A stretch of 64,000 bases of DNA from positions 62,001 through 126,000 of the forward strand of contig JABANN010000011.1 in NCBI GenBank assembly GCA_013115125.1. The letters run 5' to 3'. Below the pieces are notes generated by a model. It searched no databases. It saw nothing but the letters and a program-made list of their open reading frames with translations, and was not told where the DNA came from. Below, piece after piece: positions 7,426 to 63,280 of this stretch (its first letter is position 1; each line of letters opens with the position of its first letter). This DNA comes from Perkinsus olseni. Taxonomy: Eukaryota. The position numbers were made by a program, and so were the translations under genes.

Positions 7426-7759
7426 TGGAGCTACTACGGTGAAGTCGCTCTCACCGCGCCGCGCCGGCCGCGGAACATCCTACGTTGAACGTGATACGCT
7501 AGGTTTTTTCAAGCTCGCTAAGTCGATACGGCTTTTACTTGTAACGAAAGGTACAAAGCCTATAGCGTCTTAAGCCTGCTCTACTCCTTCCAGGACAGAG
7601 TCACTCACCTACTTCAGCGCACTTGTTGAAATAAAATTCCGGAAAATGGCTTGGTGCTGGGTTCGAACCACAGGCCACAAGAGCGCAAGATTCCACTCGC
7701 GGAATCCGTTGTCCTCGCTCGCCAAGATCGTTGGAAACTCGCAGCATAACGTTCCCTCC

Positions 7760-8707
7760 ATGGCCGACTCATCTTCATCGCCCCTGCCCAAAGGCTCTTC
7801 AGCTTTAAATGTAAGTACTGACGAGAGGATGGAAGCATGACGATTTTTATCCCAGGTGATACAAGACGTCGCCGAGTCGGCCCCTGCATCTCCCAGCTCG
7901 GCTTCGAGCCTAGGCTCACCGCGTCCTCAACACTACGACGTGGACATTGAAGATGTTCCCCGTTCGGCCTTCGGAACTCCTTCGGTTGAGCGTAATGCGT
8001 CGCGCGCTCGGTCTTCACCCTACAATCAGTTTTCAGCGTCGGACCTCCCGCCTCTACCGACCAGGGCATCTCCGTCCGAATCACCAGCGGAAGTTCGCCG
8101 AAAACGACGCCGGGGCAAGAAGCCCCTCCGCGATCAGGTTCGGAGGCATCAGCTGCTTCGTGCCGAACCCGAGGTTAGTACGGTCCGCCGGACTTCGACT
8201 AGAAGGCACTCTCCTTAGGCTTTCCAGCCATCGGAACCGGGCACTACCGGCGACGATAGAACTTCACGATGCCCCGAAAAATGCAAGCAACTTCTACTCA
8301 TAGTCGGGACAGAAGGGTCGCGTTTAGGTTCTACCTGTGCGGCCGGTCTAGAAGACCTGTACCAGACCGACTCAGAGGCAGTGATGGTAGCAGTAGTCCT
8401 GTCCACCACTGTAGCTGCCGCAGCTGGTAAGGTCGTTCCCTCATCATTCTCGTTCTCTCGAACCGTCTTCGATCAGGTGCCTTCCTTTCCCCTATTCTCG
8501 CCGGTGTTGCGATCAGTATTGGGGGCTCCGCCGGCATTTTCTTTCTTGTTCGGTCTCCAAGACTCAAGCCCCGGCCTAAGTCGTCCGGTGAATTCTTGTG
8601 AATCTTTCTTGTGGAACTATAGCGGGCTCACCTTCTGCATATGCAGAGTTGAGCCTTCCACGTGCATGAACTCCTATGTCCGCTTACGGGAACTGTCCGG
8701 TCGTTGA
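7760..8707 (+). CDS. Hypothetical Ser/Pro-rich protein with basic NLS-like stretch; 3' end uncertain
   Basis: MADSSSSPLPKG|gtaag...cag|VIQDVAESAP...EVRRKRRRGKK joins across canonical introns. No domain recognised. Confidence 0.4.
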
Positions 8708-9030
8708 GTTAACTTTTCAACAAGACAGACTAGAGTTAATGGAAATGACAACAGAGATTATTAGTCGATTGTCAACCTTGCTCTTACAGAAAGGATACAG
8801 TTGGGAGGTCATTTAGCGCCACACGAATTTCACGTTTCCGGAAAATCAACAAATTTCTGACAACAAGAGAGCAAGCACTCCTCAGCCGTGAAGCCTGTGG
8901 ATATATAAAATCCCGTCAATGTATATCTCCCATGCAATACTTCAAGGGTCGGGAACCAAGCAATCGTGCTTGACTGACCAAATCTCAGTCCTCGCAGCAG
9001 GCGAACATTGCGTCCATGCTGACAGACCTG

Positions 9031-9718
9031 GAGCCAATTAAAGTGCCCACTTTTCCAAGTCCAAGTGGAGGGAAAGTATTCCTTTCCAAACTTGGAGAAA
9101 AAAAGTCTATTAAAGTGCAGCAATGTCCCAGGAGATATCTCCAAGTACTTGGATCCACGCGCAGGGTCCTGTTTCCAATCCAAGTGAACACTTCCACGCG
9201 AGTGCGGATTAAAGTGCGCGATTTCCATGTTCCGGAGGAGGGTCATTTTTCCACATTGCTACTTTAATTCGATAAACCTCGCCCGGGGAAACGTCTTGGA
9301 AAATTTGCCCAGAAAGTCGACCGGTTGTTGTTGGCAATGAAGAAGTTGCGCAAGGATACACAAGCTCTAATGGCGTTACTAGTGAGCACCATCGAGTCCT
9401 CTCCTGTTAGCCTCGGCCCCCTGATACGCAAGTCCTTCAGGCACCTGAATTGGCACTTGGAAAAAACGGGTTGCGCTTCGGAGTCGCGCGACTGGTGGAA
9501 AAATGACCCTCCTCCGGAACATGGAAATCGCGCACTTTAATCCGCACTCGCGTGGAAGTGTTCACTTGGATTGGAAACAGGACCCTGCGCGTGGATCCAA
9601 GTACTTGGAGATATCTCCTGGGACATTGCTGCACTTTAATATACTTTTTTTCTCCAAGTTTGGAAAGGAATACTTTCCCTCCACTTGGACTTGGAAAAGT
9701 GGGCACTTTAATTGGCTC
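9031..9718. mobile_element. Non-autonomous DNA transposon (MITE), PIF/Harbinger-like, with 224-bp TIRs and CTG TSD
   Basis: Arms 9031-9254 and 9495-9718 are reverse complements with one visible mismatch. Ends are GAGCC...GGCTC, CTG flanks both sides (9028-9030, 9719-9721), and the 240-bp spacer has no transposase ORF. Confidence 0.9.
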
Positions 9719-9787
9719 CTGGTGTTCACCTCCTCTTCTTGTTGTTTGGATTCTAGGCCGTGTCGAATGCGCACTTCGATTATTAGT

Positions 9788-9871
9788 CCGTTCCGATCCG
9801 TTCAGCCATTTCGATCGATTCGCCCGTTCCGACCGTTTCGCCCGTTTCGATCGTTTCGCCCGCGTCGACCG
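9788..9871 (+). repeat. Degenerate 9-bp tandem repeat (ccgtttcga/ccgtttcgc), about 9 units
   Basis: ccgttccga tccgttcag ccatttcga tcgattcgc ccgttccga ccgtttcgc ccgtttcga tcgtttcgc ccgcgtcga. Confidence 0.8.
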
Positions 9872-9925
9872 CTGTGAGGCATCGAGCTCGTACGCAAGAG
9901 GCTTGTGACAAGACCCACATTATCA

Positions 9926-10231
9926 ATGCTAGCCAACATGTGCATGAGCCACATTGAGTTGCAGATGCTAGAGGAAATGCACGTGGAACGTGAGGAGAGG
10001 CGAGAACTGCGTGAATCTCTCACTCGGGAAGAGCTTGAACGCATTCCGCGAGAGAAATGGGATGATGCGTACGCTCCCGGTGAAACTTGGGAGGAGCGCT
10101 ACGAGCGGCGAAGGAAGGCAGCCAAGGAAAGCCATGGGGGCGTGACTCTGCTTCTTATCATGTTGTTTTACATATTCTTCAGGTTCTCACTTGGTCTGGC
10201 GACGGCACTTAGCCCCGGCGGAAGCTCTTGA
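9926..10231 (+). CDS. Small Glu/Arg-rich protein with C-terminal hydrophobic anchor (paralogue 1)
   Basis: MLEEMHVEREERRELRESLTREELERIPREKWDDAYAPGETWEERYERR...VTLLLIMLFYIFF is clearly homologous to the ORF at 17601-17852. Exact start codon uncertain. Confidence 0.7.
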   Translation: MLANMCMSHIELQMLEEMHVEREERRELRESLTREELERIPREKWDDAYAPGETWEERYERRRKAAKESHGGVTLLLIMLFYIFFRFSLGLATALSPGGSS

Positions 10232-10499
10232 AGATCAGCTACATCGATGAGACCTTAATTCATGTGCAATGCTGTTTACATTGGAGTACATTTCGGTTGT
10301 GTGACACTACTTGTGTTCAAAGTTTAGTCGAGTGTTAGTCTTTCTGTGAGTTGCAGGCCGTGGGCTCTAGAGTATGTTACGCTATTGATCCCAGCAATGC
10401 CTTAGATGAAATTTTTCGAATCGCTTCGACGCTTTTCTCTGATTCAGTCTTGAGCGCGTGATTCGACCCGAATGATTATGTCCCTTAATCTTGATTTCC

Positions 10500-11166
10500 C
10501 CGGGCGACGTTCTGTTCCGACTCGAAACTTTCGAGCTTCGTCGCCTGAGGTTCGCCAGCGAGATGATCTCGCCGAGATCCTGTCCTGTCATTGATGCAAC
10601 TTCAAAGCAAAATAGATCGGGACCATCTTGGAGGAATGGACAGAAACGAGGAAAGTGTAACCAATAGTAAATCACGTTCAATAATGCACACACTGCTTAG
10701 ATAACGATCAGAGCTTCCAAGGGCCTAGGCCTTCACGAAGACTTCCCAAGTCCCTCATTCGATGGGCGAAATCTTGGAAGTCAGCGCTGGCCTGGAATGA
10801 GAAAAACGATGAGCTCACAGTTCTTTCCGGGCCAGCCTCCTCCAGTCATATCGATGACCTGGGAAAGGTTTTCTCCCCGCTCACTTCAATTGTCTTTTGT
10901 CCCATAATACTCTGGCCTATCGTCCGCTGGGCGGCGCTGAGGTAGTCACCAATTACCGAACCCTGGGCTCGCGATGTCCAGGTCTGAGGGGAGAGATTTA
11001 CGAGTGATGACCAAACTGGTTGCACTACCTTTCCACGCTCTTCGATCGGGAGAGTAAGCCACTGAGCGAGGGCAAGAGATCCACCCGCTAGTACAGGTAT
11101 GAGCACTCCACCGTAGATGACGTACTTCAACGACACCTGACGAACACGACCAAGACTGGAGTGATA
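10500..11166 (-). CDS. Hypothetical membrane protein; spliced, ends uncertain
   Basis: Exon after cag acceptor reads VSLKYVIYGGVLIPVLAGGSLALAQWLTLP (TM-like). Confidence 0.4.
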
Positions 11167-11399
11167 ATCGCGCAGAATTCAACCAGCTCTCACTATGCGG
11201 TTGAAGAGGACGTCAGGTCGCCTTATCTGATACGTGATATCGGCGTACCGCCGTTCGAGTAACTTGTTCATATCTGACAGACTCCATCAGCAATGGATAG
11301 AAAGCAGAAGAATCACCCACTTTTGAAGGCCCGGTAGCCCCATACAGCTGAGACGAGTGCCGCTAGGTCTAGTATATGAGGGGTGTATACAGCCTTAAG

Positions 11400-11800
11400 G
11401 CCCGCCACCGCTTGCTTCATAGGCTGAACGGGTAAGGCAACGTCACTGCCGAGAAAAGAGAAGCAGGATTACATTGGTAACCGACGGTTCAACAGCGTCC
11501 TGTTCATCTTCGAATTCAATCTTATTACCGAACTCGTCGTAGTAGCTCTTCTTGTCCAAGTTCTCACCTACAACGAGAAGAGTTCAATGGGCCAAATAAA
11601 AAGTTCAGATCGAAAAAGGGTGAACTCGGGGCATGCTGGCCATCCTCAGGAACACACATGATTCCTGGGATAGCCTACATCCTATCGGCTGTAGGATGTA
11701 CATCTGGCTTACTCAAGAAGTGCTGCCGCCATTGGATGTACCCTAGCGAGAGCACTCCGCCAAGAATGCCGGTCCACACTATGTCGGCCTTCTGTGACAT
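11400..11800 (-). CDS. Small single-TM hypothetical protein; spliced, 3' end uncertain
   Basis: ATG 11800: MSQKADIVWTGILGGVLSLGYIQWRQHFL|gtaagc. A later exon reads ENLDKKSYYDEFGNKIEFEDEQDAVEP. Confidence 0.45.
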
Positions 11801-11903: not shown

Positions 11904-13316
11904 TTAAAGGCCCAGAGCACCAGCAGCCACAGCAGCAGCTGCTTGCCGGGCCGCGGCCTCTTCTAGGAATCTGTGGTAAGAGGCCGCCTGGTCAATGAGC
12001 GAGGGAGGGTCGCAACGCCGTCTGAACACGGCCGTGTAGCAGGGCTTGCCAGCTCGCTTGACCTGAAAAAGACTTCCCCAGTTGGGCGATGGTGGCGGAT
12101 GGCCAAAGTACGTACCTTCTTTCCCTCTTCTGTGTCATTCTCGATGCACTTGATGCAGGGGTCTCCTGCCTGAACGGAAGAGGACGTGATGAACAAGAGA
12201 ATGAGCTTCGAAAAAGGTTTACCCCATCTTATCGGTGCCAGCCGCGCTACAGGCGAGGCAATCACGGGAACGAATCTCAACTGTCATCAGAACCCGCCAA
12301 ACGCGAAGAAATTCGAGCTGCTTCACTGTTGTTCTTCAAGTTCAGCGACAGTGTTACAACCAGTCCTACCAGTTCAGCATCGGTGACTCGCTCGAAGAGC
12401 TCATGTTGACGTTCGCCACAGTCCCTCATCCAAATGTGGAGGTCCTCTACGTCAGTGACCGTGTACAGCAATCCACCTGAATGTAGCAGATGAGAGCAAC
12501 AGTACGACCATCTCAGCGAGACACTCTCCCGACATTCTCCCAGCAAGTCCCAGAGCGCCACTACCCCCTTACCTGGCTTCAGCACGTAAGCGTAGAGACT
12601 CATAAGAGGGTCGTTGATGATCCTTCGTCGCCAATTGTGCTTCTTGAAGTGAGGGTCAGGGAAGCAGAAGAACATCTTGTCACAAGAGCCCTTGGGGAAG
12701 TAGTTGGCCAGGAACTTCATCGCGTTCGTTCGTATGACGGCGATGTTGTCACCCTTGTATGGCCCTTCAGACAATCTCATACTCCGGATACGCTCGCCCA
12801 CGTAGTTGGTGACCTGCTCCCGTATCTCCATGCCCATAATGAGGTTGTTGGGGAAGAGCGGCCCGAGGGAGACCAGAAGCCCCCCAAAGCCGCAGCCGAT
12901 GTCGAGGATGAAATTGTTCCGGTTGGGGTGGTCGTAGATCATCGAGGAGTCGTACTGTATTGGATGATCTTTCGTATTGCAGAAGATAGTTTGCTCGCAT
13001 TCTTCCTGACTTCTGTTCGTGTGGAAGTACTTGGGGAAATGCATGGACCAGTCCACATGACGAGGTGACACAGGGTAAACCATGAGTGGGTCACTCAGAG
13101 GGTTACAGTGAGCCTGAAGGAAGACATATAGCATGAAGACACTCGCCATCACGGTTTCCGTACTCGCTGCCTGAAGTCGGCTTTCTTCGGCTTGAACCGC
13201 TTCAGTGGAGGCTCTCCATCCGCAGCCCGATTAGCCGGGCTGAGAGTCGAGGGAGAGACCTCAGGAGAGGAAGGGATAGCCGGCTGACTTTCTTGCGCGG
13301 TAGAAGCGGGTAGCAT
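11904..13316 (-). CDS. TRM8: tRNA (guanine-N7)-methyltransferase
   Basis: FRQR|AHCNPLSD, LDIGCGFGGLL, MGMEIR, RTNAMKFL, FFCFPDPHFKK, YTVTDVEDLHIWM and TEEGKK|VKR are all TRM8/METTL1 hallmarks. Confidence 0.95.
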
Positions 13317-17600: not shown

Positions 17601-17852
17601 ATGTTCAAGTTCAACGAGCTGAGGATGTTGGAAGAGATGCACGAGGAGAGGGAGGAGAGGCGTCGGATGAGAGAAAGTTTCTCTCGCGAGGAGCTGCTCG
17701 AGAAGTTTCCTCGCGAGGAGTGGGACGACGCTTACGTCCCCGACGAATCGTGGGAAGAGCGCTGGGAGAGGCGCCAAAAGGAGAAGAAAGAAGCTCCCAA
17801 AGGGTTATTGGTAGTAATGCTTCTCATAGCTGTGCTTGTTTGCTCGTTGTAG
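17601..17852 (+). CDS. Small Glu/Arg-rich protein with C-terminal hydrophobic anchor (paralogue 2)
   Basis: 83 aa, intronless; WDDAYVPDESWEERWERR then GLLVVMLLIAVLVCSL*. Homologous to 9926-10231. Confidence 0.7.
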   Translation: MFKFNELRMLEEMHEEREERRRMRESFSREELLEKFPREEWDDAYVPDESWEERWERRQKEKKEAPKGLLVVMLLIAVLVCSL

Positions 17853-18866
17853 GGCCTCTCTGCCACATCGTGCTTGCCAAGCCCTGAGCTGACTGCCGCC
17901 GACTTAATTACTAGAGCATGGAAATTTGCATGGGGAATTCCGCATCACCGCTCGATTGATAATCTTTGTTTTGTTGTGTTTGAAGTGTGACGGCCTTTCA
18001 ATTAGTGAGTGACCCCCACTGTGGGAGTCCCACTACGAGTGGGCCACTGGGAGGTTACACACTCCATCTCGCTAGGTATAATTTCGGCGTTACTGTCAGT
18101 AAGTTGCTGGTAGTGACGCTACCTGGTAGCCTTTATATTTTCCCGCTTCTCTGTTCGCTCTTACTAGCAACACGAGTTGTGTTACAGGACGTGATGCCGG
18201 TTCTATTTAATGATTATTGATCTTTCTCGAGAGTGGTTACCCGATAACCATACACAGTGGCTTACACCATCTGTTTTCCATTATTTCTTCTCTTGCTCCT
18301 CGGGTATGATCGTTTCCTGACGATGGGTGTAACGTGTGATTATCTCGTAGGTTTGTTTGATTTCTATGAGCAATTCTCAGGAAGCCGTCGAAGGGAAGAT
18401 AGATAAATCTGGCCCCTCGGATAACTACGAACTCTATGCTGTGGTAATGTGCTCTTTCGCAGTGGATCTATCGCCGTGCCGTCCCATGTCCGCCAGCGTG
18501 TATGCAGTGTTCCGTATTGGTCGTATTGGATACTGAATATACGCTCTATAAGTTACAGTTCGAACGAGTGCCAGTCTGCGTATCGCAGTTTTTACACAGC
18601 AAGACATTAGCACTTTGAGGAACTTTAGTTGTACTGGTCAAGGAATTCTTACGAATTCGCTCTTGTTAGCGTGCAGTGGTATTAGCGCTATTATTACACT
18701 GCAGTGGTTAAAAGACCCCGCGTTCGAAAGAAACTGCCCGAAATCACTAGTGAGTCGAGTCCATACCATCCGAGTGCTCCGTAATTTTTTGCGATGTGTC
18801 ATAGATCAGGCGGTAGAGTGGCTCGTATCGCAGCGAAGGTTGATTAGGACTTATCGAGAACTGTAG

Positions 18867-19330
18867 AGTGCCTGCTGAGACTCGAAATCGTTACACTGAT
18901 AAGACGCTGGTTTGACCGTGAATCATTCACGCCTTGCTTCCCTGCTGGTTGTAGCCTGTGCCTTGCCTTGCTCAGAACTTCGCTTCAAAAGGCACCATGG
19001 GCCTCTTCTCGGGGTTTATTCCAGCAATGGTCCTGTTCAAGAGCCGTCGTCTAAGGCTTGCCGCTACGGCTGTGGGCGCAGGGATCGGCCTTGGATATGC
19101 ATGGTGCCAAAATGATTTGTATTCAACGCATCGTAATATCGCGGGTTGGGAAGTTTTGGATCGTACCCAGGCTCGTTGACACTTCTTGGGTGAGGGGAAT
19201 ATAGCTGCCTCGAGTGCTGATAGTCTTACTCTGAGAATCATAGGAACTGCTGCTAAGAATCACTTGTTGAGCTCCACCTGTCGGGTAACTTGTTCTTGTC
19301 TTCAGCCGACTCGGTCGTCTTGCCGGGCAC
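18867..19330 (+). CDS. MIC10: MICOS subunit Mic10-like (DUF543); spliced, ends approximate
   Basis: NFASKGTMGLFSGFIPAMVLFKSRRLRLAATAVGAGIGLGYAW: two TM segments, a basic loop and a GxGxGxG motif. Confidence 0.7.
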
Positions 19331-19640
19331 TTTCGAGGAGTATGTGAATCGTATCAGTAATTTGATCAACTCTAAGCTGCCGGAGCAACTCAAGGTTAAG
19401 TGAAGTTGGCTGGATTGGAGCTCGTCGTTTTGCAGTGATCACTATGATTGTTCTACTGTAGTATGAGTGGCGAGTGTAGTGCACTATTTTTGTTAATGGC
19501 AGCTGCTCCGAGTTCCTATGTCACTTTACGTTAATTGAGGGCGTCCTTCGAAGACTCGCGCTTCGCTGTTACGTTTCAGCCAACGGTCTTGTGGTTTCAC
19601 AGCTGATCATCCCCTGCCTGGGCTCTACGTAGTGATTCTA

Positions 19641-22600
19641 ATGACCCGTACTGTGCACCATAGCCATGGGACTAGCCCCGAAGATTTCAAGACAACCGAC
19701 TCTATCGAGGTCGATGTGAACGGAGGGGGGGCCGACGCGTCTTGTGACCTTCAACCGCTGTTGTTCTGCCTACTGGACTGCCTCCAGGATACGGACGCAG
19801 ACAACCGGGCAGAAGCAGATGTTATGAAAGCAATTCATGCAGCTATAAGGGATATGTGCAGCCAGAGACAAAACGCACTGGATGTGCTTGATGGCTGCTT
19901 CAACTACGTGGACCGCAGTCAATGTCGTGTCACCGGTCCTGCACACAAAAGCAGTGTCTTCGACGTAGTCTCAGAAGTCGTTCTACCCGCTCTAGAAAGT
20001 ACACCCGATGAAATTACCAAGGAGAAGATTGTAGATCTTGTGGGGATTATCATTAATGAGGTTTCCAACAACTCTGAAGAGTCGCTATTACGGTCCTGTG
20101 CCTCGGTCCTCTCGCGATTGGCACGCATTGATCTCGATTGCGTGCTGGTCGAGATCTTCAGCCGAGCTGACACGGTCAGCAGCGCCAAGGCAAACGTCTA
20201 CGTCGAGACGTTGATAGAGATCTGTGACAATTGTGACACGAAGAAAGAGGCTTTCAAGCATCTTCATGCTACTGAGATAATCCGGATAACCGATGAGCTG
20301 GGTGAGTTGCTGGCTCACATGAAGGCTCGATGATCGCGCTTTACGAGTGCTGTAGGACCACAAAATTTTCCCGTGCATAGCCACTTCCGTGCGTCATTCG
20401 TCTGCCTCATTTTGTTTCTACACTCTCTTGCGCGATGCAGTATGGAAGGACGAAGGCGATTCAAGGTTTGCATGTTCAGACTCCTCGACCCGGCACGTTC
20501 CGATCCTCATAGCATGCGTGTGCAAGAAGGTGGTGACATCCTCGGACGCGGACTTCGCCAAGAAGCTCAGCGATTGCCAGTGGCTTCATGTAAGGCATGG
20601 TCCTGCAGTTTGCTGGTGATAGGAGGCGATGCTTTCGTCCAGCTCCTCTGATTGAGCTTCGTCAAAATTGTCTAGGAGGACAATGCCGTGACTCCTCTCA
20701 GGAAGATCCTGTAGCATTCAAGGTGGTCAAGGCGGCCTTCGATAGGCTAATGGGGCGAATCACTCAGGATGTCGAGTCTGGTGCTCTCAACAACGCGCTC
20801 AAGGTCGACACTCGAGAGGCCTCGGCCAAACTAGAAGCGGCCAGCAGGTTGCTGCTGCTTCTCTTGGATCGCTCGCCCACGGCTGTGGTCGGCAGCATAG
20901 CGGTCTTGCAGAAAGCATGTCTCACTTGGTTGAGCTCTTTGCTCAAAATAACACCTCCCAAAGGAATCCTCACCAGTCTCCAGATCGCTCGAGTGCTCTC
21001 CGGGATCCGTGTGCTGGCGGCTAGCGGGAAGGCACTGGCAGACCGAGAAAGCCTTCTCGAGCTGCAGGACCTACTGGTCGCCTTAGTACAGAACAACCGC
21101 CCTCTGGCAGTGCTCTCCGGCGGCTTCACGCCGCCCGGCGTGGATTCCCCAGCGGTCGTGCGGGAGGTGCTCACCACATGGGTAGCTCTCGGCGGAGAGC
21201 AGTGCATGGCGTATCTCCTGGACAAAAGAGGACTGGCTGAGCCGTCACAGCCCCACTCGACCGTTGACCGCTGTGTCGCCCTATTATGCATGCGGGCTTG
21301 TGCAGAATCCGGCCTCTCTACGACACTCTTGAGCCCGACGCTAGATCTCCTCTGTCGCGAGACAACACCGCCTGTATCCAACTACTGCACTACGATGCCC
21401 GTGGAAGCCTTCTGTCTGATCGAGGTGTTGTCGGTGATGGGGGTCAAGATGGCGCCTCTCCCTGGCCTCTACGATTACCTGCTGTCGCTACTGTGCCTTA
21501 CCGATGCTGACTGTGAGAGGGAGGTTGCCCTCACAGCCGGCCAGCGGTTCATGAAGCGTTTCTCTTCTACGGGGTCCACTGCTGTACACGACTGGCCGCG
21601 TCGTGACCGTGACGGAATGGTGGTGAACTGGCGTACAGTTCGAAAAAGAGCTTTCGAAGTTCTCCTGCAGCAAGCGGCGCACAACGACTCCGACGATCAG
21701 CAAGGCCTGCACGCGGCAGCAGTCTTATACGATAGGCTCATGGCCTGCCTGCTGTCGGGCTCATGCGATCGAGAGCATCAGCTTGATAAGGTATGCCTGA
21801 TAATGGTCAGGCTGGTCACCTCGTCCCCACGTCGCGAGCTTGTCACACCTTTGGGAGTCGACAAGGGCTGCCACCTTCTAACCTGGCTACTTGCTTGCCT
21901 AGCAGATGAAGGTGAGACGAGAGATCTCCCATGGATCTTCGGATAACCAAGGATCCACCGTCCAGGTTTATGTGAGTGTGATGACCCCACCAAGAGAGTG
22001 GTGCAAGACATTCCGGCCCGTCGTAACATCGTCGGCGCCCTTCGAGTCCTCGCCGCTTCCATTCATAGTGAACTACAAACGATGTGGGAGTCCCCTTTCT
22101 CGCGCCTCAGCGAGCTTGAGGACGGTAGAGAACCGTGCTAGAACGCCTTCCTTCCCAAAGACACCCTCGTCAGGCTCCCGATCGTCAGGCGACGAACTGC
22201 AGCTCTTCCTCAGCCGCATAGCAGCGGGCTCCGAGATAGGCGATGAGGCTGTATATGCTGAGGTATGCCGGTGCGGCCGCAGTGGACGTCCTCAACCCCG
22301 TCTCATGCTTCCCAGGCCATCTGTGTGTATATAGCCAACTCGCTGCTGCCGCACCTTGCAAGTTTGGCCACAGTCCCACCCCTTGTGGAGCTAGATGAGT
22401 CGACGCCGAGGAGTACTGCTCACCATGATGTTGGCGCTTGCGGCAACGCTGGTACCCACCTGCTTCGGCAAGTTTCGATATTTTCCAATCCTTGCTCAGC
22501 GGTCCATCCTACAGAGGCTGAGGAAGACTGTGGTTTCATACCGTCCTGTCCCAGCGCCGTTGGCAAGGCAGCTGTAGCGAGAGGGTATCGCGACGAACCC

Positions 22601-36753: not shown

Positions 36754-38521
36754 TCAACCGGTCACCGCTGGACTTCGCTCAAAGCGCAACATGGAAATTA
36801 TATTCAGAAATGCAAGTTCATTGTCGCCGTCGACGTTTGACACCTTTCTTCTGGGGCACGGCCTCCTTCGGGGTCTTGTTAGCTTCAGCGCGGGGGTTGG
36901 CCATGAGCTCGGCCGTGAATAGAATACTGCCAATGATAGCCTGCATACTGGTCAGGAATCCAATTTCACCTGTGCGCCCAACCAGCGAATTCCCCTAAGA
37001 TACTCCTCATAGTGGTGTTGATCTCCTCGTGTACGGCCTCAGTCACCGTCGTGGGAGGCTTCTTGCTGCCCATGTAGTGCCTGTATGTTGCAAACACTGG
37101 CCATCGTGGAACAGGGTCATGCCCACCTGTAAGCTAGCCGTATGACATGAACATCACAAGGGATGATTTGCCGACCTGCAAAGCGTGGTAGCACGCTGTT
37201 GACCGATAGCCTACATAAACCCACCCCGCATTGAGAAGAGGGCAACGCAATCAGCCACTTTCCGTCCAACGCCCATAAAAGACGTGAGGAATTCTCGGCA
37301 CTCCGTCTCTTGCTTGAATGCGTCAAGAGCACGGAGCTTCGCGAGCTGGCCTTCATCCTGCAAGGTAGTGATCAGGGAACGGAGATAACGGGCGCGGTAT
37401 CTGGAACAGAACGAGGAGACATCTCTTCTTGGGCCTGGCGTCAATAGAAGCCTATGGGCCGTACAACAGTCTGCAACGAGAAATTCAACATGCAAAAACG
37501 AGGCCACTGCGCCACGCGGCGGGAGAACGGCCGTGTACCATATGATGATGGCACATTGCAAGTATTGATCATGTATGTGGATATTGCAATCAATCATGTC
37601 ACAATAGTTGCAACGGGAGAATGCCCGAGTGTACTCAAGTGTATTCAAGAAAACATGCACAAGCGAGGCCACTATGGCACTCGTTGCGAACACGGCCGGA
37701 CTGTGATTTCGTGAGACCTCCCGGCCGATAGCGAGGACAGTCTGCCCGGGTCTCCGACCCAAATCCCATCTGGCGGAAGTGATCCTCGGTGGCAGCATCC
37801 AGTTGATGTAGGCTGGGAAACTGGTACAACTCCAGCGTCTCTTCGCCCCCTTCGCGATCAGCAGCGGTCACCGTTGCCAAGTGCGTGCCATACCCTGAAC
37901 GCCGCCTTGGAAAGAGGAAATCGGCGGAGTTGACCTACGCTGTCGAAGGGCGTTGAGCAGGAGACTGATCCGCTTAACGTTGTTATTCTGTGACGTGATG
38001 AAGGACACCAAGCACTCGAAGGGGTCTTGATGAACCACCCGCAACCTGAAGAACCGAAACAGGTCTAATTTTTGCAACAGGAAAAGGCCAGAAGGTTCCG
38101 AACACAGGCCCGACTGTGAGCGTACCCACGAAGATTCTTGTTGTGAACAACGGCCCTGAAGACCTCATCCCTCCCCTCCCAGTCTTTATATAGAGCATCG
38201 ATATCGGTCTCTAACTGGAAGAACTGCCGAAGCTGCACATCAGCTTTCTCTATCTGCTTGGGCGGCCAACAGGAATACTCAATCATGGCAAGCTCAGCGT
38301 TCGTCCGCAAGCGGAAGGTAGTTGAGCCGATGACGCCGCAGTACAGCTCTCCTTCCTGTCCTAAGGCAACGCAGGTCACCCGGGATTTCACGAGCGAAGT
38401 CGGGCTTCCTACCGCCGTCCAAAGCCTTCCAGACAAACACTTGCCCGCTGAACAACGTCAAACGAAGGTTAAGTTGATTTACCGGGGCCAGAGACACCCA
38501 TTTTGAGAACCCGGAGAGCAT
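36754..38521 (-). CDS. OGG1: 8-oxoguanine DNA glycosylase; spliced
   Basis: LNLRLTLFSGQVFVW, QDPFECLVSFITSQNNNVKRI, MGFG|YRARYL, HhH motif GVGRKVADCVALFSM, IPCDVHV and SILFTAEL. 3' end approximate. Confidence 0.93.
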
Positions 38522-38996
38522 GCTGCATGCAAACCCTCTGAAGGAGTGGTACAACGAAGACCTGATAAATCGGTACCAACCGATTCGTAAAAACTGGCAA
38601 CGGAAGCGGGAACTAGCGCATCGAAGTCTCAACCAAGCAAGGATCTGTGGCATGGTATAGACCACTGAGTTAACACTTCGTACCAGTCCAGGAGGCACGG
38701 CTTTCTCCTATAGGGATACCCTGGAGACACACACACCACGCAGCCATACCCGTTGCACTAGCACTCACTCTTCGTCGTACGCTTACTAAAGTCGCCCCCT
38801 TGGACCAGCTCAGCCTACTTCGAACACGACAATGTTCTTTGAGACCAATCATCGTTCGGTGGGACGTGGACGTGCAATGATGATCACCGATGATAAATCG
38901 CAACGGGAGTGAGCAATAACTGATAGGTACTTCGTTTACCTCATGCAACGTCAAGTTTACACTAATGTACCAACGCGGGACGACGTCTAAGAACTT

Positions 38997-41900
38997 CTAA
39001 TGGCACCGGCGTCGCCGTTTGTTCTTGATCTCTTCCGTTGAGATCCATCCCTGTGGTGGCGGAGCGCCTATCAAATTGAAATCCCTGAAAAACATGAATA
39101 GCAGAAAACGTATCAGGCCGCTGCCGTTGCGAGCACACCTGTCGAATTTTCCGGCCCCACCGTCATAGGACCAGAAGAGCGGCTCTCCCTCGGTGATGAT
39201 CTCCCCTCGTTTACGCTGCAGCCAGAAACCCTGAAACAAAAAACGTCCTTTTGAGCGCAAACTGGAGCATGCCCGACCCTCAGCAATTGCCCTTCATCCG
39301 AAGAGTGGCCAGAAGAAGATCTCGACAGTCTAACTTCGCAGTGCCGCGGCTCCAGCTTGCAATACTCCACCCTCTCGTGGTTGACCGTCGGTCCTATGCT
39401 CCACATCTTGGACGTGGGGTCCGCGTATTGCGCCCTGAACGAACGGCGTGCGTTAACGGACGATTAACACATAGGGCGCATCGGCTCCGGTAAGACACTT
39501 CTTCTCTCTTAGCGCGATAGCTAGGTTCCCGACTCACAATTTACCCGTTAACAAAGTAGTTGTCCTTAGTTTCTATCATTTTCATGGTGGAAAACAGGTC
39601 CCACACGAAGTTGGAGTTCGGTATCTCTGCCACGTACCTGAGGAATCTCATAGTGATACTGATTTTCAAAACCTGATTAAAGTCCCTCGCATCCGCCCCG
39701 ATCGGCGGTCACAGCGCTGCCACCCAATGAATTCCCACCTGTTGTCGTCGGTGTGAACGTTCTCACTGGACGCTTCCATTTGCATGGCCTCTTCTCGAGT
39801 CAACACTGAGCCTGCGAGTCGTAGGATTCCCCGATGCGCGGGCCACAACATCAGACCCACTCACCGGCATAGACCAGTATCACATCCTCTTCGAGACCCT
39901 GGCGAATCTGATCGTCGGTCGGCCAGTCCTGCGCTGCTATCAAGTGCCAGCCGCCATAGTGCTCATCTTCGACGGCCTTCACAAACTGCCTTGCTCGCCC
40001 CAGGCAACGGCACTGCAGCTCTGTGAACCCAAGGTTGAGAGTACCGGCGAGTACAGCCTCCCTACCTAGTAAGCTCAACTCGAGGTACTTCTTGGTGAAG
40101 GTCTCGATGTAAAAACGCTCGCTGAGGACCATCGACTTATTCTGGGCTTCTATGTGGGCCTGGTGCTTCCTTCAGAGACAAACAGTGAGCGCCGAGCAAG
40201 TCTGTTCAACGGTCTCACTGTTGCCGAAGATACTCCTTGAAAATGTGAGACGGCAGACCTTTCCCCTCGCGGTCATCAAACCTGAGCCAACCCCTTTACA
40301 GTCGGAAGGCTCGCGGAGCGGAGGCTTACTCTCCCGAGTGGAACGCATCGCCGAAGAGAACGGCGTCTGAGAGAGAGCGCTTCTTATGAGGAGGTGCTCG
40401 GTGAATCTAATCGCCATCAGCACATATCGAAAGCGACTGCGCGGGAGTAGGCGCCCACTATTTTCTCGTAGTCCTGCTTCCGAGGACAGTTCCAGGGCTG
40501 TATAGCGTTTCGCTCGAGCCAGCTGAACTTGGGAGCTCTGTCCCGCTCGTCCGAAGTCAGCTGAGAATGACAGCGGATCAGAGGTGAAAACGCTCCCATC
40601 CCTTCTGCAAAGTAGCGGTGCAACGAGTGAAGCCTCACTCGACGAGCCATCAATTCTCTGAGCCACTCGGAGATAGGCCGCCCATGCTCGTCTCGAGTCG
40701 CCAACTGCTTGGAAGTCACGGGAGTTTCGTCGGTAACACTCATGTCTAACGAAGCATCGGGAGCCGCATGACCGCGCGCCACAAAAACAGGATGACGCTA
40801 CTCTCGACGGACTTCTCCTCGGCACTGACTGTGGGCTCACTGCTGGTTTCCTTCACCGACCCTTCCGCCCCCGACTCAGAGACCGTGGACGCGTCTCCGA
40901 CGACGGAACTAGCACTCCTGAAATATGCATGGAAAGCCACAGCTGAGAGACAAGCCGATGCGGCTCACTGCGATGGTCTCAAATGGGCCACTGGAAGCTG
41001 CTCCTTCTCGAGGAAGTAGACCATGTACGGTGCTGTGATCGCTTCCTGATCGTCGGCGTGACGCTATGCGGTGATGCGTTCAATCCCGCTATAGAGGGAT
41101 CGACGTCGTGCTCACCCCTTTGAGAACATGCGTCAGAACAGCAGGTGTCCAGGAGGGACCTCTAACCGGGATCCTAGCCCACACAACGGACGGCGCCTAG
41201 GAATACTGCCTGAGCCCAAGGCTATCGTCGGAAGGCCAGCCCACCTTCAACGCCGTCTCCAGCTCTGCGTCGTCCCCTTCGGTGGCACGTGTTTGCGGAG
41301 CCTCGAGAAGCATGGCGGTAAAGTTCCGCATAGGACCGCAGTTTCCGAGTCGCCCTCGAGCTGCGGCCCACGAATCGCTGCCTTTGAAGGGCCTCTCAGT
41401 AGCCTGTACAGCGGTGACTCCGGTCCCAATGGAGCCCAGCAAGTATCCCACCCTATCAGCCTTCCTCGGTCGGCCGATGCCTCTCGACGACTCCACCTTC
41501 CTCCGCTTCACTTTGTGTTGTGCCTCATCATCGCTGCTAATTCGGCCATCGCGGTCCTAATCATCGCACGAAAATGTTTGTACTGGTGATGGAGTCAGCA
41601 GAGTGTAAGCACGGGAGGCAACAACCACTGGTTGTCGACGAGATACTCCGGCGAAATTATACGGTTGCTACTGTTCTTACGACTTTCGCCACGAGGTCGT
41701 CATACTCCTTCTGCCAATCTTTCAAGTCTTCTCGAATGTTGTGGTATCTGACACCGCTTGCCATGGGCTGCGCAGCACTACAACAACCACGACCCACTGT
41801 GCCTTGGCATCATCAGGCAGAACTTCAAGTACAGGTACATCAGGATCCGCGAATAATGAACGTGCCATGGCCCAAACGCCTCGAGGCTTCGAGTACTGAA

Positions 41901-44159
41901 GCACAAACGGCTGCAGCTCACGAGTTCTTATTTGAGTTAGATGCGTCCGTCGGCGCCCCACATTGAACACCTCATTACTCGTAAAGCTCACTTCTCATCT
42001 TACATATCGCCCCCGTGAGAACTACGGCAGCGAAAAGCTGACTTTGTCTCCATCGCATCCACCATCGGCGAGACGCTAGACACCGGAGCATCCGCCCACA
42101 GAATCACGCAGAGACGAAGGAAAAGAAGATGCTCCAATCATCATGAGTTGAACCAAACCCCGTTACACTCTCTCCGAATGCACTTGAGCACTACATTCCA
42201 ACAGCTCCACCCCACGTGCAGCTCTACTCACATGTTTCCTCGCCATGATCTCATCCCATCCCAGCAGCTGCTTGGTACTGCTTGCGGCGAAGTGAAGCCG
42301 TTCCCACTCCAGCTTCTGTTAGGGCATTTCACTGAGTGCCAATTCGACGACCTACCTCATTCTGCAATTTCGTCGCAGCCATCGCTATAACTACACGCTT
42401 ATCATCGCGATCATGGCGGAAGTCAAATCCAACTGCGATGAGGATGGTCGCCAAGGGAGATATCGAGCAGGAGCAGTACCAATGATGATCGGATATGAGA
42501 CATTCTTCCGAGCCCCGCACCACAGTAGAGGACTCTTCAAAATCAACACCCCTTCCTCCCCATCCCTCTGGCTCTCCAAGACTACAAAAAGAGCCTCAGC
42601 GATGAAGAGACCACAAACACCTACGCAGATTTCTGGGATACCTCCATTCGATCTCACAGTCCATTCTAGCCCGGCAGTCGAAGCAGTAATAGTTGACCAT
42701 TAAAAATTCGGTATCATACCTAGACGGAATGCAGAGGGTCAGCGCCGGCGAGCGCCAACTACTCACACGCCAATTCTCAGCGAGGGATCTTCGCACTTCC
42801 TATGCACCCAAGTATCGCAGCCAGCGCAACCTAGAAGGTCCTCTCGCTGCTGGTCGCCGAGAGATGTCTCCCCTACCCATAAAAGGATCGGACTCATCCA
42901 CTGGTGGCTCGTCAACTTCGTAGCCCAATCCGCAGCCGGGGCAAAAGCATCCAAGTTGTGAATAAAACTGTTCCAGGCACATCCCTGACCATCAGTAAAG
43001 ATTTCCGACAATGTCGGAGCGCAGCAATCAGATCATGGATAGAGAGCCTTGGGAACCTCCGCTAGCTGAGTGTCGGAAATAAACACTCGAACGTTGGCGT
43101 GAGGAGGCAACCTTCGGCCGCCACTTGTATGAGGCTGGAACCAAGTTCAAGTTCAGGCCGTCATAGAGGCAACCGGCGATGTCCCAGTCGGACAATGTCG
43201 AACAGTCTGACCTTCGACAGTGCCCAAATATCATTTCCGATACCCTTGTTCTTACTTCATGCCATTTCCGGCCCCTTTACGGTGACTTAGTGCCGTGTCC
43301 GGCCCCTTTACGGTGACTTAGTGCCGTGTCCGGCCCCTTTACGGTGACTTAGTGCCGTGTCCGGCCCCTTTACGGTGACTTAGTGCCGTGTCCGGCCCCT
43401 TTACGGTGACTTAGTGCCGTGTCCGGCCCCTTTACGGTGACTTAGTGCCGTGTCCGGCCCCTTTACGGTGACTTAGTGCCGTGTCCGGCCCCTTTACGGT
43501 GACTTAGTGCCGTGTCCGGCCCCTTNNNNNNNNNNNNNNNNNNNNNNNNNNNNNNNNNNNNNNNNNNNNNNNNNNNNNNNNNNNNNNNNNNNNNNNNNNN
43601 NNNNNNNNNNNNNNNNNNNNNNNTGTCCGGCCCCTTTACGGTGACTTAGTGCCGTGTCCGGCCCCTTTACGGTGACTTAGTGCCGTGTCCGGCCCCTTCG
43701 CAGGTACTACGTAGACCACTACCGAGATACAGATAACTCGCCGCGTCAGTTCGACTACCCTATAATTCCGGCCCTAGCACTAAAACCGCTGATATTACCG
43801 CAACACTTCCTGCTCTTATAGGTCGAGTCCACCACAGCACTACGGGAGCATCTCGGGTTCCAACACTTCTCCGTCCCTTTAGCCGGACACTTGGACTGAG
43901 TGAAACTCGATCATCGGGGTAATGTGACTCGTCGAAAACTCACCCAGTCAGCAATTTGCTTGACCGTTGGCTCCAATTGACCATTGGCTATGGGATCTTC
44001 ACCGTTGGCAACCTTTTCACCATCGTCGTGGGAATCCTCTTTCTTCTCCGTCGTCTCCACCTTTTCCTCAATTTTCTCAGCGACCTCAGTAGCAAGCAGC
44101 TCCTCTATTTGTTGACCCTCCATGGTCAGGTCCCCATCTGAATTCACCGCCGGCGGCAT
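38997..44159 (-). CDS. Putative PHD-finger + AT-hook + divergent SET-domain chromatin protein (may be more than one gene)
   Basis: PHD-like LLGCAGCDTWVHRKC...YYCFDCR at ~42850-42660. AT-hook GRPRK at ~41470. SET-like GWHLIAAQD...VILVYAG|VLTREEA, GPTVNH and IITEGEPLFWSYDGG at ~39960-39160. Confidence 0.6.
43267..43698. repeat. 31-bp perfect minisatellite spanning an N gap (at least 10 copies)
   Basis: Unit ccggcccctttacggtgacttagtgccgtgt, identical copies on both sides of the gap at 43526-43623. Confidence 0.95.
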
Positions 44160-44377
44160 GCAGCAAATGCAGGGAGATCTCCTGGGCGCAGTAGATTCAC
44201 TTCGCTTTCAAAAAGTCGTCCCAACAGCGAGGATACCGGAGCCTACTAGGATGTCAGCGCTTGTCCCATATTCGTTTTGTACGCCACTCACCCTTAGACG
44301 AATACATGATAGTTGACAACTAACGCAACATGCCGCATCCCGAAACAAAACGGCTCGTGAAAAAAAGACACCGCAAT

Positions 44378-46184
44378 TCATGAGTGAGGGAGGAGTACTG
44401 CCGCCTCCTGTCCAAGACGCTGCTGACAATATCGAAGCAGGTCGTGGAGCTTCCCGGGATTGATCCCTGCACCGGACGGTACGACTGATTCCATCGGAGC
44501 GAGCACCCACCCATTCCCTCGAGTTGTGCCACCAGATTGGAGAGGTACTCAATGGAAGGACCGTTTTGGCCCACTCCAGAGCAGATCAACCTGAAATAAC
44601 AGCGTTGTGACCACAGAGCCGACAGTAGAACAATACCGCAAAAGTATGAGTGAAACCATCAGCTCGGACGCATGGCTTGCTCAGCGACTTGGATCACAAT
44701 AAATGATCAGCACTACGCCATATCTCCAGGATTGAGCTCAGTCGTATGATGGCATTAATATCTCACCGATATCCGCTCCAGACCAACAACCACCGTACGA
44801 TCCAGCAAATGCGTTAGCCGGACCCGGCGCTCAGCAGTGATGGACAAATCCGTTCCCTGCCTCGTCTTTTCCTCGTCACTGATGTCCCCCGTGTAGTTGT
44901 CAGCAGACCTATTCACGACATACGTATAACAGGGAATCTCCTCGCCTTGCGCAACCACAATGACCCCTGAATCAACCGATAGATTCCGAATCATCCAACC
45001 ACAACCAGACCCACTCTCCCGTGTGTAAGCTCCCATAACGAGCTCACGACGGTCTATTCTCTGGAGAGTGTCCGCGAGCTGAGCTTGGTCCAGTTGCAAG
45101 ACCATACCCTCGCACTCGCCATCGGGGCACCGCAGGAGGCCTGACCACCAACTCACTGCCTACCGCTAACAATGAGTACCAAGGGAGAACAGAAACGCAC
45201 GTGTCTAATTCTCCTCGAGACCCCCAGTTCTGCCACTAGTTTTTTTGCGCTTTGAACCGTGCTAACACATATAGTGCTGAGATCATTCCCGCGCGAGCAG
45301 AGCCTCCACGAATAAAGTTACGTCGAAGGCGACTCGACGTTGAGATTTCTAATCTAATTATACCAATCTAATAAGGGCCAAGGACCGGAGGACCGTAAGT
45401 TACGGCCGTCCGCATCTTAACGTGCCTGGCACACACCGTAAAGGCAGGCATGGTCGCTGTGCGGGATGTCTCAAAACTATCACCGAGTGTGATATATCCC
45501 CGGCAACTAAAGCCGGACTCGATATGCAGTCTGCCTCACCAGAAATATTCGTAATAGAAAATTGTGATTCAAACGTTGCACAGCGAGTGCTCGGGAATGG
45601 CACTTAATGCATTCCGACTGCATTATGGTGCAGACCGTATCGCGGAGTGTCGTTTGTACGCGAAGTATTTTCTGATTGCTAGGGAAGTGTTCCAACCTAC
45701 GCGGCGTAGGTTTGGGCCACACTAGGTTTGGAAGCTTGCGCACGCACGCAGGCGAGCTCGTCACAAAGACAAATAGTCACACCATGCAACAGCAGCCCGG
45801 CTAGCGCACCGACGCAGTGCCACTCCAGTGGACCGTTGTGCAGCTGTCTCGGCGTAAATCATCGTCGGTTAGCGCGATGAGAGCGATGCATCATAAACGG
45901 GATTAAAGGGAATCTCCGGCGGTAACGGAGCGTCGACTCTACCACTCATAACCGCCCGACCGGCTATATAGACCCAGTGACTCGGGAGCAGAAGCACCTC
46001 GCCCCTTACCCATGCACAAACCGGGCTTCTCTCGAGTACCCCGATATATGAACGATTTGATGCACATCTCTCGGCTATAGCCCTTGAGGGTGCCAGGAAG
46101 GACTCGCTCGACGCCGGGTATCGAAGAGGCATCCCACATGAGGGAAGCATAGGCGAACACATGGTTAATGTCCGGAGAAGCCAT
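44378..46184 (-). CDS. ChaC-family glutathione-specific gamma-glutamylcyclotransferase; spliced
   Basis: VFAYASLMW, GTLKGYSR, YRGTREKPGLCMG|LL, IDRRE and GQNGPSIEYLSNL are ChaC motifs. The first intron is ~870 bp. Confidence 0.9.
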
Positions 46185-56618: not shown

Positions 56619-56691
56619 AGCAGCCTGGCGCAGTGGATAGCGTGTTGGGCTCATAACTCAAAGGTCCCTTGATCAAAACAAGGAGTTGCTA
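56619..56691 (+). tRNA. Initiator tRNA-Met (CAT), variant or pseudogene
   Basis: AGCAGCCTGGCGCAGTGGATAGCGTGTTGGGCTCATAACTCAAAGGTCCCTTGATCAAAACAAGGAGTTGCTA. It has A1:U72, a CAT anticodon, an initiator-type ATC T-loop and a TTTT run immediately downstream. It deviates from the canonical structure at C7:A66, A57 and a G:U pair in the anticodon stem. Confidence 0.85.
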
Positions 56692-58749: not shown

Positions 58750-59738
58750 TCATGGTTTCACCCTTGCAATACCAATCTGCTTCTTGTCAAAGTCGAACGA
58801 AATATAGTACCCCGGAACGACATTGTGACCAATTCTCCAGTGGCCGTCAGTGTCTCCGAAGAAGAGCAAAGTGCACACGATTCCACGCGTGTTTTGCTTT
58901 TCTTCGGCATATTTCTCGGGCGGGACCTCCATGGAGACTTTTCCATCCACCCCTCAAACGACAGCTCTATTGTCGGCAGATAACCCCTGTCCGCGCAGTC
59001 GATCTCATATCTATCCCCGACGAGCCTAATATCAATGGGCTTCTTGGCTCCGAATCTGATGAGAGTGATGAGATCTTCCCTAGCCTTGGCTGGCAAGTAT
59101 ATGCCGTTGGTGCCGGTGTCCAAAATGGCATGCAGACCAGCTTGTCTGGAGGCTCCACCGACATTAACGGCGAGCAGGCGAAGCATCCAATGACCTTCGC
59201 CGACCACAGGCATGAGAGCTAGCGGCCCAATGAACTTGTCAGGGTCCACTCCTCCTAGAAGCACCTCTTCACGCGAAAGAGACCCAGACTCGAGATAGAG
59301 AGAAAAGCTACGGCTCTTGATGTATCAACGACTGAACTCCACCTCTGAGCCGAATGTGAGGAGCAACACACTCTGCTCGGACATGAGGGCTTCAGTTGCC
59401 AGTAGAAACATAACTGAGCCATCCCTGAGCGTAACCTGGTCCGGGTAAGTTGGGTCCCCTTCTTCACAGAGGTCCTCTGCGTGACAATAAAAGCATCCTA
59501 AGACACTCGTGTTGCAATAGCGAGCCGGTACGGGCGCCTCCCCTGACATAAAGTACATGAGGGGCGTGTCGGTGCTCACCAATGCACTGAGGTTTTGTTT
59601 GGTAACAGAAATGTCGGCGACCAACCCGTAGAGTGAAAATGGGTCATCGACAAACTCTCGGCGCATAGGAAGCCTCATTAGGGGTACAGCTCCGGAAACG
59701 AGTAGAATGATTGAGGAGATTGCCCATAGCAGCTGCAT
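58750..59738 (-). pseudogene. Aspartic-protease-like pseudogene, copy 2
   Basis: Internal deletion of about 0.1 kb at ~59328 relative to copy 3, and a 1-nt deletion in the G run at ~58950. Confidence 0.85.
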
Positions 59739-61319: not shown

Positions 61320-62406
61320 TCATGGTTTCACTCTTGCAATACCAATCTGCTTCTTGTCAAAGTCGAACGAAATATAGTACCCCGGAATGGTATTGTGACC
61401 GATCCTCCAGAAGCCTTCAGTGTTTTCAAGGGAAGTGCAAAGTGCATGCGCTTGACGATCCTAGCTCTTCGATATATTTCTCGTGCGGGACCTCCATGAA
61501 GACTTTTCAATCCACCCCCTCAAACGACAGCTCTATTGCCGGCAGATATTTCCTGTCTGCGCAGTCGATCTCATATCTATCCCCGACGAGCCTAATATCA
61601 ATGGGCTTCTTGGCTCCGACTCTGATGAGAGTGGTGAGATCTTCCCTAGCCTTAGCTGGCATGGATATGCCGTTGGTGCCGGTGTCCAAAATGGCGTGCA
61701 GACCAGCTTGTCTCATTGAGGCCCCTCCGACGTTAACGGCGAGCAAGCGAATCATCCAATGACCTTCGCCGACCACAGGCATGAGAGATAATGGGCCAAT
61801 GAACTTGTCCGGGTCCACTCCCCCCAGAAGCACTTCTCCACGCGCAAGAGACCCAGACTCGAGATAGAGAGAAAAGCTCCGGCTCTTGATGTATCCCGAA
61901 GGATTCTTCACTAGCTGGTCGATCAGTGGGGTACGAAAAAGAGGGCGGTCCTGCGAGAAGCCAAACCCCAACACAGAGGATGGAAAGTGCTCATCAGGCC
62001 CACGCCTGAGAGACACCTCTGAAGCGAATGAGACGATCAGCCCACTCTGCTCCGCTATGTCAAATATGCCCGAGGTTCCGAGTAGTTGGATATCCGTGCC
62101 GTCTCCTAGCGTAACATTGATAGGGGGCAGGGAAACAACGCATACCTCCGGGTAGCAATAGAAGCATCCGAATATGCTATAGCCGCAAATGCTGGAACTA
62201 TGGAAATAGCCAAAGATAAAATAAATGAGAGGCGTTTCGTTGTTCACCAATGCACCAAGGTTTTGATTGCTAACAGAAAGGTTGGCGATCAACCCGTAAC
62301 GCGGGTATACCGGATCGACAATCTCTCGGCGCATAGGAAGCCTGATTAGGGGTACAGCTCCGGCATAGAGTAGAATGGTTGAGGAGATGACCCATAGCAG
62401 CTGCAT
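61320..62406 (-). pseudogene. Aspartic-protease-like gene, copy 3 (least damaged; nonsense codon and frameshift near the C-terminus)
   Basis: Open from MQLLWVISS to FEGVD. TGA at 61507-61509 stands where copy 2 has GGA, followed by a +1 frameshift at ~61430. Confidence 0.85.
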
Positions 62407-63280
62407 TGATGCTAAGATGAGGGGGAAAAGGTTGCCTGCCAATAAGCTCCCATTCAAATGTATCAGACGTCCGACGGGAAAGATGGTAGCCGACTGCTTA
62501 GCCACTGTGGGAAATGTGGGACATACGTGTCGCTAGCTCCGTCCCTGCCGGAGGGACAATGACCACGGAGTTGCTGGTTATCCTCATCGGCGGCCCTGCC
62601 AGCCCTTGGCCTACCAGGTAGGCCCTACCTCGCATCCTGTATCCGGCCTGCATTCTGGTTGTGATAGGGCATGCATTCAGTAGTCTAGTGCCTCCTTTTA
62701 CACTCCGGGGAGAGTTACCCCCGCACTGTAGACAGCGGCGGACGTGCAGGCGCCGACGTGACCTGGGAGATCCAGGCCCGCTCGAGGCGCTCTGTTGGCT
62801 CGTAATTCGAGGTACTCACAGTGTCTAAGCACGCCCATCCATGATTCACTACTAAAGCTTTCAGAAATGTAGCCGAGCCTCGGAAAACTATCTCGCATTT
62901 GTTCGTAGCCGCCCCCTAATCCGAAACGTAACCAAGGATCTGGTGACACGTGCACTGTCCCATTCAGTCGTGTGTGACACACCCTTGTCCCTCAACTTGA
63001 GGTCTTCCCTAGCTGTTGTATTCCTGCCTATCTACTTTCCCTAACCTATCCATTGTCGCGTTATTATACTGCACACGGGCACTGTGCCGCAGCGGGGAGG
63101 CTTGACGTCATTAGTATCACAGAGGTATTGCCAGGATTCCGGGCTCTTTCACGTTAGGTTATGTTACGTACGCTGCCGATACTTCAGTGTCTTCAGGTCA
63201 GAGTGTGCAGGCGACAGGAAAGCACTCATTCCGATGATAGTATCAGAATTTGATAATCAAATAGTATCCGTCAACTGCGC

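Follow-up and report, generated by a model that had tools for sequence, protein, structure and literature searches.

A recently mobile MITE with long inverted repeats in a Perkinsus-like alveolate, probably a non-autonomous NuwaI/Harbinger3-like PHIS element

The movement of PIF/Harbinger transposons is characterized, in the sections of PMC2836001 devoted to it, by a 3-bp duplication of the target, an extended palindromic preference around this duplication, and a Myb-like protein (ORF1) that binds their terminal inverted repeats (TIRs) and recruits the DDE transposase. According to the same sections, the preferred target covers 9 bp for plant elements but 15 bp for those of vertebrates, and excision is usually precise. 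Two described systems are of particular interest here. In Tourist-like MITEs such as mPing, short non-coding deletion derivatives with short TIRs insert into AT-rich 9-bp targets with duplication of TWA (TAA/TTA) and leave clean empty sites (PMC2836001). In zebrafish, the non-autonomous element of the Harbinger3_DR / Harbinger3N_DR pair is moved in trans and the Myb-like ORF1 protein binds its TIRs (PMC3016246, PMC2836001); the target consensus of Harbinger3_DR, as given in a passage of PMC3016246, is AAACACCWGGTCTTT.

A wider classification was proposed by Han et al. 2015 (Mob DNA 6:12), who divided the PHIS elements (PIF/Harbinger-ISL2EU-Spy) by the type of target site duplication (TSD) and named the CWG type NuwaI (PMC4482050). 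In the parts of that study that describe these groups, PHIS TIRs range from 5 to 1042 bp, with about 93% shorter than 60 bp, and usually begin with A or G. NuwaI itself comprises 23 families with two ORFs (a DDE transposase and a Myb/SANT protein) and with TIRs of 12-61 bp that usually start with GGG. Although the screen covered 836 genomes including 121 protists, the NuwaI hosts given there are 16 animal genomes only, i.e., 12 bony fish, 1 beetle, 1 crustacean, 1 mollusc, and 1 anthozoan (PMC4482050). Harbinger3_DR would presumably count within NuwaI.

The locus described here lies in a stretch of 64 kb, hereafter called the window, and consists of an element of 688 bp (9031-9718) that, as read from the sequence, begins with GAGCC and finishes with GGCTC. 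It is inserted in a palindromic site with the core AC-CTG-GT of which CTG is duplicated, though CCTGG fits as well (Table 1). The two arms are complementary at 223 of 224 positions, with C at 9107 against 9642 as the sole mismatch, and TIRs make up two thirds of the element length. A repeat finder returned slightly longer arms of 229 nt (99%; 9026-9254 and 9495-9723) because the host flanks are themselves palindromic (left AC-CTG, right CTG-GT). In the whole window, the element alone contains inverted repeats of at least 30 nt (partners within 6 kb), and its 20-nt terminal sequence has no occurrences apart from those at the two termini, with 0 expected by chance. In single-stranded form, the element folds up as one long hairpin of -322.8 kcal/mol compared to -90.5 ± 6.3 kcal/mol for shuffled versions (n=20, z = -36.9). 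The left TIR is rich in CCAAGT/ACTTGG words, and the 10-mer ATTAAAGTGC is present in three copies per arm (in the left arm at 9037, 9109, and 9208) while being absent from the rest of the window. The internal region contains a 40-aa ORF (9337-9456) for which we found 0 relatives among longer proteins and 0 among 1.84 billion representative proteins, and we treat it as non-coding or unrecorded.

Table 1. Features of the element and its insertion site (window coordinates).
Feature	Position	Strand	Basis
Left TSD copy, CTG	9028-9030		Direct repeat visible as CCTGG 9027-9031; empty-site joint in X6
Left TIR, 224 nt, GAGCC start	9031-9254	+	Inverted-repeat comparison
Internal non-palindromic region, 240 bp, segment mosaic	9255-9494		Segments about 9247-9322, 9326-9458, 9453 onwards
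Right TIR, 224 nt, GGCTC end	9495-9718	-	Inverted-repeat comparison
Right TSD copy, CTG	9719-9721		Sequence and read-derived contigs
Split target site: ACAGAC left half and GTGTTC right half around CTG	9021-9728		Comparison with AAACACCWGGTCTTT

Our re-reading of the sequence agrees with a preliminary description of this locus on the 688-bp length, the 224-bp TIRs with one mismatch, the GAGCC...GGCTC ends, and the CTG flanks. This description had further specified a 3-bp duplication. CTG does stand at both ends, but the length of 3 bp is ambiguous because the direct repeat at the insertion measures 5 nt (CCTGG at 9027-9031 and 9718-9722), so that a 3-bp CTG duplication around GAGCC..GGCTC and a 5-bp CCTGG duplication around AGCC..GGCT fit equally.

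The region is present in nine public runs, of which eight represent one organism and come from two studies, and we compared read-derived contigs of four runs (X1, X2, X6, and X9) with the window over positions 7500-11500. X1 and X2, from the two studies, agree with the window over both flanks and both junctions, with 0 differences. As these runs may stem from the strain of the window or from a nearly identical one, they do not support it independently. X6 carries the same organism label and diverges in the flank, with 29 differences over 1056 nt (about 2.7%). One X6 contig joins 9026 to 9718 and omits 691 bases, i.e., the 688 bp of the element plus 3. The shorter side of the joint comprises 66 letters, 5 letters at the joint can be assigned to either side, and the contig has a depth of 48 compared to ca. 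55 for the flank. One strain lineage therefore carries the element at this locus, and in another it is exactly missing. An empty site in other strains had been suggested as a check when the locus was first described, and its exactness in X6 implies that the element moved recently. The X6 allele speaks for mobility as such, and an ancestrally empty site would look the same as a later loss since excision of PIF/Harbinger elements is usually precise. The fourth run, X9, has a different organism label and yielded a single 151-nt contig (8781-8931, depth 2, identical to the window) that is probably a trace of the window organism in that sample.

The same runs contain element sequence far in excess of its flanks. 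The TIR contig of X1 (9030-9198) has a depth of 945 compared to 85.8 for the flank and that of X2 (9030-9132) a depth of 1603 compared to 131.7, both with 0 differences from the window. Internal pieces reach depths of 592-1168, and element pieces overall lie at about 7-12 times flank depth, which we read only as "order of ten, near-identical" because contig depth is no strict measure of copy number and sequence from either arm of an element ends up in a single TIR contig. In X6, element pieces have 2-5 times the flank depth of that run, so the family sits at other places in this strain, too. Contigs of the right end continue past 9723 (X1, X2) or 9724 (X6) into unrelated sequence and reveal, among the best-supported loose ends listed, at least two further insertion loci that are each flanked by CTGGT. 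The element thus belongs to a small family of near-identical copies. This bears out the earlier reading as a MITE, i.e., a non-autonomous, multi-copy TIR transposon, as well as the view that it is young and recently active, given the empty site in X6 and the high-depth contigs identical to the window. No other copies were found within the 64-kb window, where two CWG-flanked pairs with TIR matches of 12/14 (17762-21464 and 38295-45751) were rejected as chance-level candidates (ca. 0.8 expected, by estimate). A metagenome scan with the 26-nt element end gave 0 matches.

Not all family members look like the copy in the window. Its internal segments 9247-9322, 9326-9458, and 9453-9545 appear in contigs of 114, 740/241, and 837 nt, respectively, at 6.9-8.9 times flank depth and with loose ends at 9247, 9322, 9326, 9453, and 9458. 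Each segment is bordered on either side by different sequence, which extends for at least 541 nt beyond 9458 and for at least 744 nt before 9453. Because the segments adjoin other sequence in such high-depth contigs, most of their carriers appear to be longer elements, which are also more abundant, and the 688-bp copy is best understood as a deletion derivative. A variant joint of 9260 to 9453 on opposite strands (X1 and X2, depths 149 and 257) and a 165-nt deletion inside the right arm (9495-9661; X6, depth 19.6) point to several rearranged subfamilies.

The window offers some clues about the host. Scanning with family profiles found genes for a gamma-tubulin complex component, HPPK-DHPS, a Trm8-type methyltransferase, LicD, and two aspartyl proteases. 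The Trm8 ORF (12277-13152, minus strand) shares 86% identity with the tRNA (guanine-N7) methyltransferase of Perkinsus olseni, followed by apicomplexans and dinoflagellates at about 50%, so that the protist host assumed in the preliminary description can be narrowed down to a Perkinsus-like alveolate. Perkinsus is a genus of mollusc parasites. The DHPS ORF, when compared among longer proteins, shows only 46% identity to early-diverging fungi and says little about the lineage. The aspartyl protease ORFs (58758-59324 and 61507-62532, both minus strand; eukaryotic aspartyl protease family, E = 1.9e-16 and 1.2e-21) are neighbours and could represent either tandem paralogues or exons that belong to adjacent genes. 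Upstream of the element, two ORFs of one frame (7841-8218 and 8219-8707, plus strand) are split by a TAG at 8216-8218. The differences of X6 fall mostly on third positions of the 7841-8707 frame on both sides of this TAG, and X6 has C at 8216 and thus CAG; possible explanations are a nonsense polymorphism, the border of an intron, and chance. An 18-bp tandem repeat (9782-9871) starts ca. 60 bp downstream of the element. It comprises four overlapping 36-nt copies with 64-78% identity to the reference copy, and reading frames in this area are kept open artificially by the repeat. A scan with Rfam found one tRNA gene only (56619-56691, plus strand, 44.8 bits), which is far from the element; tRNA genes are the reported targets of the Dada transposons of P. 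marinus (PMC3706591).

The element is also connected to a particular group of transposons by its target. Read on the minus strand, the restored site matches the Harbinger3_DR consensus at 13 of 15 positions with mismatches at consensus positions 1 and 14. Both this count and the consensus, which had been given when the locus was first described, proved correct, the latter against the passage in PMC3016246, and the 3-bp duplication then ascribed to PIF/Harbinger elements is likewise borne out by the sections of PMC2836001 cited above. Given CWG, at least 10 matches at the 12 flanking positions have a chance probability of P = 3.8e-5, or 2.7e-5 with the base composition of the window. The rest of the 64-kb window contains 0 sites within 2 mismatches of the consensus and one with 3 mismatches compared to 2.27 expected, while intact unoccupied ACCWGGT cores number 5 compared to 7.2 expected. 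The match of this site to the Harbinger3_DR target is far beyond chance.

How much of this target the family actually recognizes can be approached through its other insertions. Four half-sites are visible, two at the window locus and two from the best-supported loose ends listed, and all of them read CWG-GT-S, though the shared CTGGT of the latter two may be a biased sample given how these flanks were chosen. The outer three target positions agree at 2/3 and 2/3 on the two sides of the window site and at 1/3 and 0/3 at the two other flanks. A preference for the 9-bp core is supported, while one for the full 15 bp is not yet supported. Of the long specificity that the preliminary description had likened to Harbinger3_DR, the core CTG-GT-S recurs at two other loci, whereas the outer TTT positions do not carry over.

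Taken together, the element at 9031-9718 works like, and probably is, a non-autonomous NuwaI/Harbinger3-like PHIS element, i.e., a long-TIR MITE moved by cut-and-paste; we put the probability of this reading at roughly 0.7. As in PHIS elements generally, its TIRs (224 nt) start with A or G, here G, and its target is palindromic beyond the duplication (the AC-CTG-GT flanks, in a small and possibly biased sample). The insertion adds 691 = 688+3 bases with CTG at both ends, which agrees equally with the 3-bp duplication of PHIS elements and with a 5-bp CCTGG duplication. As in NuwaI, the duplication is of the CWG type, with CTG on both sides and an empty site in X6, and the same ambiguity between 3 and 5 bp applies. 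The first base of the TIRs agrees with NuwaI, too, and non-autonomous copies of this kind would be expected to need both a DDE transposase and a Myb/SANT protein. By contrast, NuwaI elements are known from animals and have TIRs of 12-61 bp usually starting with GGG, while the present element resides in a Perkinsus-like alveolate, has TIRs of 224 nt starting with GAG, and has no transposase among the 40 window ORFs scanned; we regard this TIR description of NuwaI as descriptive rather than as a strict criterion. The likeness to Harbinger3_DR and Harbinger3N_DR concerns the target, with a palindromic CWG-centred site in both cases, and presumably the movement of a non-autonomous element in trans with a Myb-like protein at the TIRs, but the two other flanks of our element match only the inner CWG-GT-S part. 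Like mPing and other Tourist-like MITEs, the element is short, non-coding, derived by deletion, and flanked by TIRs, has a duplication of probably 3 bp within a target that extends further, and is matched by a clean empty site, but it differs from them in its CTG duplication, GC-containing palindrome, and long TIRs.

The strongest competitor is a TIR transposon from a different or undescribed superfamily, with a duplication of 5 bp (CCWGG) or 3 bp and a convergent likeness to the Harbinger3_DR target. Such an origin would suit the 5-nt CCTGG direct repeat and the 5 letters that fit either side of the empty-site joint, the poor fit of a 224-nt TIR with GAG start to the description of NuwaI, and the lack of any transposase or Myb protein among the 40 window ORFs scanned with Pfam. 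The known 5-bp-duplicating superfamily Transib, however, has CAC... ends that resemble neither GAGCC nor AGCC. Moreover, a match of 10/12 flanking positions to one published Harbinger target is improbable by chance, and a similar ambiguity between 3 and 5 bp exists for NuwaII (C-TNA-G), where it was settled as 3 bp by analogy in the relevant part of PMC4482050. We consider a different superfamily unlikely, though clearly the most serious alternative to a NuwaI/Harbinger3-like element.

Much less probable is an introner-like MITE that inserts into transcribed DNA at a CAG-GT-like proto-splice site and is spliced out of the transcript like an intron, a type described from other myzozoans. Intron elements with inverted and direct repeats (3-5 nt) at their borders are known from Amoebophrya, which are relatives of the host (PMC7789003), the target core on the minus strand is indeed CAG-GT, and a stop-free minus-strand frame spans the restored site. 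However, GT...AG borders are found on neither strand in any register that the CTG/CAG duplication allows, and the spanning frame owes its length largely to the 18-bp tandem repeat, which is open in any frame. The strain differences upstream show their third-position bias in the plus-strand frame that ends at 8707, so that the insertion looks intergenic or located in a UTR. Finally, a non-mobile local palindromic duplication or an assembly artefact would agree with the single copy in the 64-kb window but can practically be dismissed, as both junctions recur with 0 differences in runs of two studies, the depth of element pieces is many times that of the flank, the element end is common to other loci, and X6 has an exact empty site.

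If the element is indeed of the NuwaI/Harbinger3 type, its mobility can be pictured by analogy to the described systems. A transposase of the DDE_Tnp_4 type and a Myb/SANT DNA-binding protein would move it in trans, and the genes for both would presumably lie in a longer member of the family at another genomic location. The three ATTAAAGTGC repeats per arm are candidate docking sites for the DNA-binding partner, and the cuts would be staggered by 3 bp at CWG inside the extended palindromic target. The window copy itself may have arisen from a longer element through internal deletions.

Since CWG-duplicating relatives have already been named NuwaI, the type of target is less novel than it might seem, and the interesting point is the non-animal host. 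Searches of the open literature (i.e., leaving aside Repbase, subscription journals, and supplements) turned up neither a Harbinger-type element described from Perkinsus nor a CWG-type element from any non-animal host. What is new here is thus probably the occurrence of a NuwaI/Harbinger3-like element in a host lineage for which nothing of that kind had been reported. A link between fish and Perkinsus would have parallels in other DNA transposons, i.e., the Tc1-like TRT group (PMC5630946) and the strongly target-specific Dada elements (PMC3706591), which are both reported from zebrafish and Perkinsus marinus and therefore show a similarly patchy distribution. TRT and Dada differ from our element in superfamily, duplication, and target and serve as context, not as its relatives; they make the fish/parasite link less odd but are not evidence of transfer in the present case.

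The insertion provides a presence/absence marker that separates strain lineages of the host organism. How far its significance extends beyond that would depend on the partner transposase. Should this turn out to be an ordinary PIF-like enzyme or be absent, the element would simply add one more MITE family. More tentatively, and with the odds somewhat against it, a lineage of the Harbinger3_DR/NuwaI type may be alive in this Perkinsus-like mollusc parasite and have kept the same extended palindromic target (…ACAC-CWG-GTCT…). This would mean either that the module of the transposase/Myb pair reading the target is conserved across very distant eukaryotes or that the element has passed between marine animals and their parasite. 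If a partner transposase were found within the Nuwa clade, the CWG-targeting Harbinger lineage would no longer be restricted to animals, and parasite and host would form a pair in which horizontal transfer can be tested. It would also offer a second system, one that is naturally young, in which the integration site is long and sequence-specific. Such specificity is seen in few cut-and-paste transposons and is interesting with regard to tools for targeted integration.
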